Source: Escherichia phage Mizar
DNA: 64,000 nucleotides
Reading direction: 5' to 3' (one strand)
Sequence record: PV714129.1
The position numbers and the translations under genes were made by a program. Shown in pieces: positions 2,807-3,493 of this stretch. The notes under the pieces are model-generated. The model made no database searches. It was given only the letters and a program-made list of their open reading frames with translations, and was not told the origin of the DNA. Each line of letters starts with the position of its first letter. The first letter of the stretch is position 1.

Positions 2807-3493
2807 TTACCAGCCTTCCATAGGGAATTCCAGATAAACTTGAGCATTGACACGAATTTCATTGGTAATCTTTTTAACTCGGTCTGTATTACGAGATACA
2901 CGTCCGAACCAACGCCATCCATTACTAATTGCACGAGAACCAGTGTGCCATGTTTGCCAATCAAACTGAAGAAGAGTACGGTCTGGAGCTTCCCATTTCT
3001 CTAGTTCACCTTTTTCAATTTTTTCGAGGACTTCTTTGTGCCATTGGCGATAGATAAGTTCGCCATCAGGAATCTGACTGAACTCTGCAGTTCCTGTTGC
3101 AAAATGAGTAGGACACACATCAGCGTTAACAAGACCAAGAATATGTTCAGACAAATAGCGAGGATTGTCATAGTCAGGTTGTCCTGCAGTAATAAAATGT
3201 TGACCAACCGGAATATCCGGGCGTGGTACGTCATCATGGTGATAACCAGGAATAGCAGGATACCAACCAGGCATCAGCATATGAACACGTGAATCGAATA
3301 CTACTTCATTAGTGTTCCAGTCATCAGGCAGATTCATGATGAAAGAACGAGTGATAGGACCGCCGTTATCAAAAGCAAACTTCAGGTTGCAGTTGAAGAA
3401 CATAGGCTCATTTTTAATTTTATCATTACTGATACGGCCAGCGAAACCACCTACTGCACGAGCTTGACTATTAAACACTTTAGAACTATTCAT
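2807..3493 (-). CDS. hypothetical protein (228 aa), possible 2OG-Fe(II) oxygenase-like
   Basis: ORF with ATG at 3493; contains HHD (H-x-D) followed by distal His and R-x-S (WHTGS...RVS), a pattern typical of 2OG oxygenases; not verified. Confidence 0.45.
   Translation of the reverse strand: MNSSKVFNSQARAVGGFAGRISNDKIKNEPMFFNCNLKFAFDNGGPITRSFIMNLPDDWNTNEVVFDSRVHMLMPGWYPAIPGYHHDDVPRPDIPVGQHFITAGQPDYDNPRYLSEHILGLVNADVCPTHFATGTAEFSQIPDGELIYRQWHKEVLEKIEKGELEKWEAPDRTLLQFDWQTWHTGSRAISNGWRWFGRVSRNTDRVKKITNEIRVNAQVYLEFPMEGW

Follow-up and report, generated by a model that had tools for sequence, protein, structure and literature searches.

The window analysed here, a 64,000-nucleotide (nt) stretch of the genome of Escherichia phage Mizar (sequence record PV714129.1), contains on its minus strand a gene for a 228-residue protein that, judged by its conserved residues and its predicted fold, is very probably an Fe(II)- and 2-oxoglutarate (2OG)-dependent oxygenase. 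The explanation that we consider probable overall is that the gene is a genuine, early-transcribed accessory gene of a Mosigvirus, and that its product is a soluble enzyme of ~26 kDa representing a separate, unannotated and essentially phage-restricted branch of the 2OG oxygenases. The open reading frame (ORF), which an earlier note had placed at positions 2807–3493, was recovered on the minus strand with an ATG start, and the motifs that had prompted that note to suggest an oxygenase, YHHDD and WHTGS...RVS, are read directly from the protein as Y84-H85-H86-D87-D88, W182-H183-T184-G185-S186, and R198-V199-S200. The features carrying the assignment are as follows.

2807–3493, minus strand: coding sequence of the 228-residue oxygenase-like protein (PHROG 1843), an ATG-started ORF with 99.1% identity to an annotated coding sequence of phage p000v
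3233–3241, minus strand: codons of His85-His86-Asp87, of which His85 and Asp87 (H-x-D) are the proposed Fe(II) ligands, from their invariance and, as to role, from fold matches
2945–2947, minus strand: codon of His183, invariant and the proposed distal Fe(II) ligand, on predicted strand 182–185 (DSSP of the model)
2894–2902, minus strand: codons of Arg198-Val199-Ser200 (R-x-S/T), the proposed binder of the 2OG C5 carboxylate, on predicted strand 192–201, from the known 2OG-oxygenase layout

Active-site conservation and predicted fold

Taken by itself, the H-x-D...H...R-x-S/T pattern is weak evidence for an oxygenase: the expression H.D.{40,160}H.{6,25}R.[ST] arises in 6.9% of 20,000 shuffles of the 228-residue protein. 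What lifts the motif beyond chance is the invariance of His85, Asp87, His183 and Arg198 across widely diverged homologs. In an alignment of 118 family members with 24–96% identity to the window protein, fifteen positions are invariant (Gly44, Asp67, Leu73, Pro79, Pro82, Gly83, His85, Asp87, Pro90, Arg91, Tyr148, His183, Arg198, Arg214, and Trp228); in a second alignment of 60 divergent members, 27–59% identical to its first sequence, the invariant set shrinks to Leu73, His85, Asp87, His183, Arg194, and Arg198. The residues singled out in the earlier note are thus those that never change in either alignment. The R-x-S/T motif reads R-V-S in the window protein and R-V-T in the family consensus.

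An AlphaFold2 model built with the 118-sequence alignment has a mean predicted local distance difference test score (pLDDT) of 91.5 and a predicted TM-score of 0.89, with low confidence (pLDDT ~65) confined to residues 92–110 and the last few residues. The model has the double-stranded β-helix (DSBH, or jelly-roll) core of the 2OG oxygenase superfamily, the fold for which the earlier note had proposed to look. The H-x-D motif lies just after the second core strand and His183 on strand 182–185, as for the facial triad H-x-D/E...H (DSSP of the model), and Arg198 lies 15 residues after His183 on strand 192–201, the position of the strand-VIII basic residue found 10–20 residues past the distal histidine. 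In the model, this strand order puts the iron triad and the 2OG-binding arginine where the superfamily canonically has them, and His85, Asp87 and His183 would be expected to cluster in space. A Foldseek search of the PDB returned Fe(II)/2OG oxygenases exclusively among the top 50 matches (HygX, SnoK, GriE, proline hydroxylase H11, EvdO2, ColD, SptF, and HalB/D), with a best E-value of 2e-4 and modest TM-scores of 0.3–0.43. The best structural matches are PhyH-like small-molecule oxygenases (EasH, EctD, proline hydroxylases, and HygX), with AlkB-type enzymes ranking lower; a search of BFVD matched first members of the family itself, all of them uncharacterised, and then, weakly, viral 2OG oxygenases.

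Comparison with named sequence families, for which the earlier note had proposed PF13640, PF03171 and AlkB, did not place the protein in any of them. A Pfam scan of the 228-residue protein at E ≤ 10 matched no family (PF05721 PhyH, PF13640, PF03171, and the AlkB-like PF13532 included), scans of the 118 family members matched no 2OG family at E ≤ 1, and NCBIfam and PADLOC scans of the 228-residue protein gave no match. Searches of all PDB sequences with phmmer and with hmmsearch using the family profile found no oxygenase and only noise such as BICD and pentapeptide repeats. By hhalign, the family profile gave a non-significant probability of 0.2% against E. coli AlkB, using a sequence confirmed to be identical to PDB 6y0q_A, and both family alignments gave 0.2–0.3%, likewise not significant, against a 38-sequence alignment of the family of cyanophage P-SSM2 PSSM2_031 (PF13640, E = 1.7e-16). 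The sole stretch aligned in the latter comparison spans 9 columns and pairs YHHDDVPRP with FHHDAATEP, the H-x-D segments of both families; this pairing, although not significant, is suggestive. Since the Pfam, NCBIfam, PADLOC, PDB profile and hhalign comparisons were all negative, the protein is a member of the 2OG/Fe(II) superfamily in its fold and active-site pattern, which supports the suggestion of the earlier note, but its sequence places it in no described family; it is a new, unannotated family inside a well-known enzyme superfamily rather than something categorically new.

A second P-SSM2 protein, PSSM2_054 (L267, 48665–49213), is annotated ‘DNA endonuclease V’ and has a weak PF13640 signal (E = 0.005, under the curated cutoff). 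Among the structural matches to the AlphaFold2 model is a cyanophage protein bearing that annotation (BFVD rank 33). The label of PSSM2_054 may be a propagated misannotation.

The only label found for the 228-residue protein is that of PHROG 1843, ‘unknown function’, which it matches over its full length (E = 1.7e-95; residues 1–228 against profile positions 1–222 of 222). We found 1288 homologs in a large protein collection, 615 family clusters in an exhaustive search of 50%-identity representatives (E ≤ 0.001), and, by tblastn, homologs in 472 of 50,697 phage records. The carriers include T4-type phages of Escherichia, Aeromonas, Klebsiella, Serratia and others, as well as Mycobacterium, Gordonia and Bacillus phages, and the protein is annotated as hypothetical in all phage records inspected. 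Only 19 loci were found in cellular genomes, with one genome searched for each of 185,579 species of bacteria and archaea; phages are essentially the only carriers of the family. Three long members, P0257 (418 residues), P0303 (444 residues), and P0362 (387 residues), are about twice the normal length and match the query in two or three stretches, which suggests that a single polypeptide carries the oxygenase domain in tandem copies; no Pfam domain was found in the longer or apparently fused members (258–444 residues).

By analogy with the known chemistry of the superfamily, His85, Asp87 and His183 would form the facial triad holding Fe(II), and 2OG would chelate the iron with its C5 carboxylate gripped by Arg198 (of R-V-S) on the last core strand. 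Reaction with O2 would decarboxylate 2OG to succinate and CO2 and form an Fe(IV)-oxo species, which would hydroxylate or oxidatively dealkylate a substrate. The substrate may be held by the family-specific conserved residues Asp67, Arg91, Tyr148, Trp193, Arg194, Arg214 and the C-terminal Gly-Trp, together with a flexible loop (residues 92–115).

Gene neighbours and the candidate substrate

Gene neighbourhoods were compared across 221 homolog loci from viral and metagenome contigs by calling ORFs and clustering all neighbours, with the oxygenases grouped at 70% identity into 66 lineages. The neighbour family with the widest lineage spread is a protein of ~480 residues that starts ...DSYK..H and is a nicotinamide phosphoribosyltransferase (NAMPT; Pfam NAPRTase plus NAMPT_N). 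Other recurrent neighbours, identified by Pfam, are a fusion of NadM-type nicotinamide mononucleotide (NMN) adenylyltransferase with Nudix and Macro-domain proteins; an ADP-ribosylglycohydrolase, a nicotinamide adenine dinucleotide (NAD) kinase, and a flavodoxin-like NAD(P)H reductase are each found at a single locus. NAMPT (11 lineages) and/or NadM (8 lineages) lie within 6 kb of the oxygenase gene, always on the same strand, in 13 of the 66 lineages. The gap between the oxygenase gene and the NAD gene is at most 52 nt in nine loci, and the matched reading frames abut or overlap in five (L037, L048, L069, L078, and L228); in the four full-length pairs of this kind, the called ORFs share four bases. 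NAMPT and Nmnat genes, the pair that makes up NARP2, both stand beside the oxygenase gene in L064, L078, L144, L190, L195, and L196, with the order NadM-NAMPT-oxygenase in L190.

In some environmental phages, NadM-type NMN adenylyltransferase-Nudix, NAMPT and oxygenase genes form ‘NAD islands’ (L190, 3519–10073; L200, 5–7934; L078, 2598–6645; L196, 489–7516), which additionally carry the ADP-ribosylglycohydrolase (L190), the NAD kinase and flavodoxin-like reductase (L200), or Macro-domain proteins (L078 and L196).

The NAD-linked oxygenases are 43–68% identical to one another, apart from a near-identical pair (L037 and L228, 95%), and are scattered over the clade containing the window protein, to which L037 and L228 are 71% identical. 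Among phage records, 4.0% carry a NAMPT/Namat-family gene; measured against this background, NAMPT in 11 of 66 lineages corresponds to P = 6e-5 without a position requirement and to ~3e-14 with one. A first sample, centred on the window protein, had 5 of 20 lineages linked to NAMPT.

Because the gene abuts NAMPT and NadM-type genes in islands of many related phages (with Macro, ADP-ribosylglycohydrolase and NAD kinase genes), we tentatively propose, as the leading candidate class of substrate, an NAD+-derived or ADP-ribose-containing molecule or adduct, a gene-order argument to which we give limited credence. On this view, the enzyme would play an auxiliary part in NAD+-centred counter-defence or in NAD+ economy, and in the window phage it would act alone. 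A more specific and rather unlikely possibility is that the family is an unrecognised component of the NAD+ arms race, an oxygenase that converts or destroys an NAD+-derived molecule either together with NAMPT/NadM (as an ‘extended NARP2’) or alone; under this proposal, the candidate targets would be an NAD+ cleavage product so modified that salvage could not use it, an immune signal based on ADP-ribose, or DNA or protein bearing an ADP-ribosyl adduct.

The link to NAD+ is subject to several caveats. The metagenome contigs were sampled around a member linked to NAMPT, and in large phages both genes are more frequent than on average. Approximately 80% of lineages have no nearby NAD gene, including all T4-type phages, the actinophage clade, and the cellular loci; around the 19 cellular loci neither NAD genes nor any other clue were found, and no conserved partner was found in the Mycobacterium, Bacillus, Klebsiella and Stenotrophomonas phages or in a marine phage. 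In the window itself, tblastn with NAMPT, NadM and Macro seeds matched only a NudE-like Nudix gene, and no Nampt-Nmnat pair adjoins the oxygenase-like gene. We found no literature tying a phage 2OG oxygenase to NAD+ salvage, to NARP1, NARP2 or NARP3, or to anti-defence. A metallophosphoesterase that recurs near the gene in actinophages was rejected as a partner, being common in those phages anyway.

The alternative that survives best, which we nonetheless find doubtful, is a 2OG/Fe(II) oxygenase acting on a substrate unrelated to NAD+, such as a free amino acid or another small metabolite, or serving as a 2OG/succinate sink that reprograms host metabolism, with adjacency to NAMPT reflecting co-travel in accessory islands. 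The prominence of PhyH-like small-molecule enzymes among the structural matches, the majority of lineages without NAD genes nearby, and the position of the gene in a variable region flanked by putative shuffling elements are all in its favour. A 2OG-lowering role has reportedly been discussed for the 2OG oxygenases of T4-like cyanophages. Yet hitch-hiking is hard to square with the recurrence of same-strand gaps of 52 nt or less, five of them abutting or overlapping, among proteins as diverged as the NAD-linked set, and the invariant or near-invariant Arg91, Arg194, Arg214, Trp193 and Tyr148, which are surplus to 2OG binding, would fit an anionic, nucleotide-like ligand.

Improbable, in our judgement, is a protein hydroxylase (prolyl, asparaginyl, arginyl or lysyl) that acts on a host or phage protein early in infection in the manner of PHD/P4H enzymes or ribosomal oxygenases. 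Structural matches of that type score no better than the small-molecule enzymes, the hhalign probability against the PF13640 family is only 0.2%, and neither a conserved partner nor a target gene was found in the loci examined. The hosts, moreover, are as unlike as E. coli, Mycobacterium and Bacillus, so the target would have to be universal.

A nucleic-acid oxygenase, whether for AlkB-like repair and dealkylation, for TET/JBP-like base hydroxylation, or, in a variant of the idea, for oxidative removal of ADP-ribose from DNA bases, appears less probable again: AlkB is as remote by hhalign as stated above and AlkB-type structures rank under the PhyH-like ones, DNA-modification genes are not co-located in the loci examined, and the carrier phages differ greatly in DNA chemistry. 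It is highly improbable that the protein is a non-catalytic cupin/DSBH-fold protein acting by binding or inhibition, or a metal enzyme independent of 2OG, given that the full H-x-D...H...R set is strictly invariant in both alignments, which were built independently and span wide divergence. Such invariance marks a 2OG/Fe(II) active site that has been kept, whereas pseudo-enzymes usually lose it.

The gene in its phage setting

In Escherichia phage p000v (Mosigvirus; RB69-like, T4-type), a ‘hypothetical protein’ shares 99.1% identity with the window protein, whose gene sits in a run of small minus-strand ORFs with tRNA genes (10.5–11.5 kb) on one side and the T4-type lysozyme gene e on the other, in a region that also carries denV and a nudE-like Nudix gene. 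The elements of its immediate surroundings are listed below.

3499–3505, minus strand: Shine-Dalgarno sequence GAGGAAA, 5 nt 5' of the ATG of the oxygenase-like gene and within the end of the upstream ORF (from the sequence)
3495–3800, minus strand: 101-residue hydrophobic ORF, the first gene of the cassette (ORF call; an annotated coding sequence in p000v)
3797–3864, minus strand: element at the cassette head resembling promoter-early stem-loops (PeSLs), TGTACA-17 nt-TATAGT over a 12-bp hairpin, then Shine-Dalgarno sequence and ATG (repeat, promoter site, and folding)
1634–2092, minus strand: NudE-like Nudix hydrolase gene, 0.7 kb downstream of the oxygenase-like gene (Pfam NUDIX, E = 2.6e-16; context only)

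The stop codon of the 101-residue ORF (3495–3497) is separated by one base from the ATG of the oxygenase-like gene, and translational coupling of the two is suggested because the Shine-Dalgarno sequence of the latter lies inside the end of the former. The 101-residue product is probably a membrane protein; because it is kept at position −1 in only 4 loci, it is probably not an obligate partner of the oxygenase-like protein.

The element heading this two-gene cassette has a sigma-70-like site at 3857–3829 and a hairpin of −17.8 kcal/mol (z = −4.3), and belongs to a repeat family (D1/D2, 34–68 nt) with five minus-strand copies, at 3797–3864, 4073–4106, 5367–5434, 8467–8534, and 9036–9069. At least three of the copies join a sigma-70-like promoter (TGTACA/TTTACA-17 nt-TATAGT), an 11–12 bp hairpin, a Shine-Dalgarno sequence, and an ATG; three fold strongly (−17 to −18 kcal/mol, z −2.9 to −5.1), whereas those at 8467 and 9036 do not. 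On these sequence features the repeated intergenic element resembles PeSLs, which are reported to mark and shuffle cassettes in T4-type variable regions (PMC2839356, PMC4122927). Since the PeSL-like promoter element heads the cassette and the late-promoter motif TATAAATA was not found on the minus strand between 2.8 and 9.8 kb, early expression of the oxygenase-like gene is likely.

The NudE-like Nudix gene was considered as a functional partner and rejected as evidence. It occupies positions +2 to +4 in 24 of the 26 loci that have it, nearly all of them T4-type, and was seen in only two lineage groups. In T4, presumably, nudE adjoins e in a genome without the oxygenase-like gene; the e-nudE pairing therefore looks like T4-type backbone synteny.

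Directly downstream of the oxygenase-like gene, the window differs from p000v and from a second close relative (L008) by one extra T (GGTCTTAATA versus GGTC-TAATA; window 2780–2810, minus strand), which frameshifts the 5' end of the gene at 2315–2807. The p000v version of this gene encodes 163 residues from an ATG overlapping the oxygenase stop codon; in the window only a 142-residue ORF is left, with a GTG start at 2743. The difference may be either a true truncation (a pseudogene) or a homopolymer sequencing error.

Five small, mostly hydrophobic minus-strand ORFs nearby (2315–2743, 3495–3800, 6224–6583, 6562–6987, and 6926–7549) have in common a C-terminal motif F-(I/V)-x-E-(C/I)-R, exemplified by ..RFITECRNLR, ..NFIKECRGK, ..NFIKECRK, ..FVKEIRCK.. 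and ..QFIMECREYVK... The corresponding DNA pattern TTYATHAWRGARTGYCG occurs 3 times against 0.08 expected, and in at least one case the codons of the C-terminal motif hold the Shine-Dalgarno sequence of the next gene; these ORFs could be a paralogous membrane-protein family or mark a conserved cassette junction. Three tandem minus-strand ORFs (5433–5630, 5640–5912, and 5922–6227; 65, 90, and 101 residues), which coincide with repeat D3 and end in W-V-(S/A)-S-S-x-x-C, look like tandem paralogs. A 318-residue protein (4139–5095, minus strand) matches Pfam DUF7277 (E = 6e-27) and DUF7275 (E = 7e-79), and 23 T4-type loci retain its gene at one to three positions upstream of the oxygenase-like gene. 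Upstream of the variable region lies the phage tRNA cluster, also on the minus strand: tRNA-Arg(TCT) at 10506–10581, tRNA-Asn(GTT) at 11307–11378, and tRNA-Met(CAT) at 11385–11459.

Comparison with known systems

A 2OG oxygenase in a phage is in itself ordinary; the size of this family, its invisibility in sequence databases, and its linkage to NAD genes add interest. Should the assignment by fold prove right, ~470 phages with sequenced genomes encode an oxygenase that every database still lists as ‘hypothetical’; among them are mycobacteriophages, numerous environmental phages, and coliphages of interest for therapy. The idea is testable, given a tractable E. coli phage, known candidate catalytic residues, and existing panels of NAD+-depleting defences.

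Among characterised enzymes, the PhyH-like oxygenases EasH (4nao), EctD (4nmi), H11 (7dzz), HygX (4xc9) and SnoK (5epa) are 8–18% identical to the 228-residue protein in structural alignments. In contrast to this group, it has no PF05721 match, is shorter (228 residues versus about 250–290), and has the motifs of its own family, PGW/YH-x-D-x-VPR, GWR-x-x-x-RV(T/S), and a C-terminal GW. With the prolyl-4-hydroxylase/PKHD type (PF13640; PBCV-1 vCPH, 5c5t, and P-SSM2 PSSM2_031), of which phage-encoded examples exist, it has in common the DSBH fold and the H-x-D...H...R-x-S/T arrangement, yet the profile comparison with the P-SSM2 family described above separates the two. Relative to the AlkB DNA/RNA dealkylases, a sequence relation is not detectable and a nucleotide-recognition lid is not evident.

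The likeness to NARP2 (Nampt plus Nmnat) comes from gene order: in 13 of 66 lineages, the homolog gene falls within a Nampt/NadM module or next to one. It is qualified by the facts that NARP2 functions without an oxygenase and that Nampt and Nmnat were not found in the 64-kb window; an oxygenase is mentioned neither in the main text of the NARP paper, by word search, nor in the abstracts on NARP3 and aRES. Extended NARP1 operons are described as carrying an extra phosphatase, Adpp, that repairs ADPR-1''-phosphate (bioRxiv 10.64898/2026.01.28.702374). Extended NARP1 shows that operons of this type can take on accessory enzymes for the repair of modified NAD+ breakdown products. If the NAD link is real, it points to a metabolite or adduct derived from NAD for which no one has yet searched, and oxidative chemistry would join NARP1, NARP2, NARP3 and the Adpp phosphatase among the NAD+ strategies of phages.
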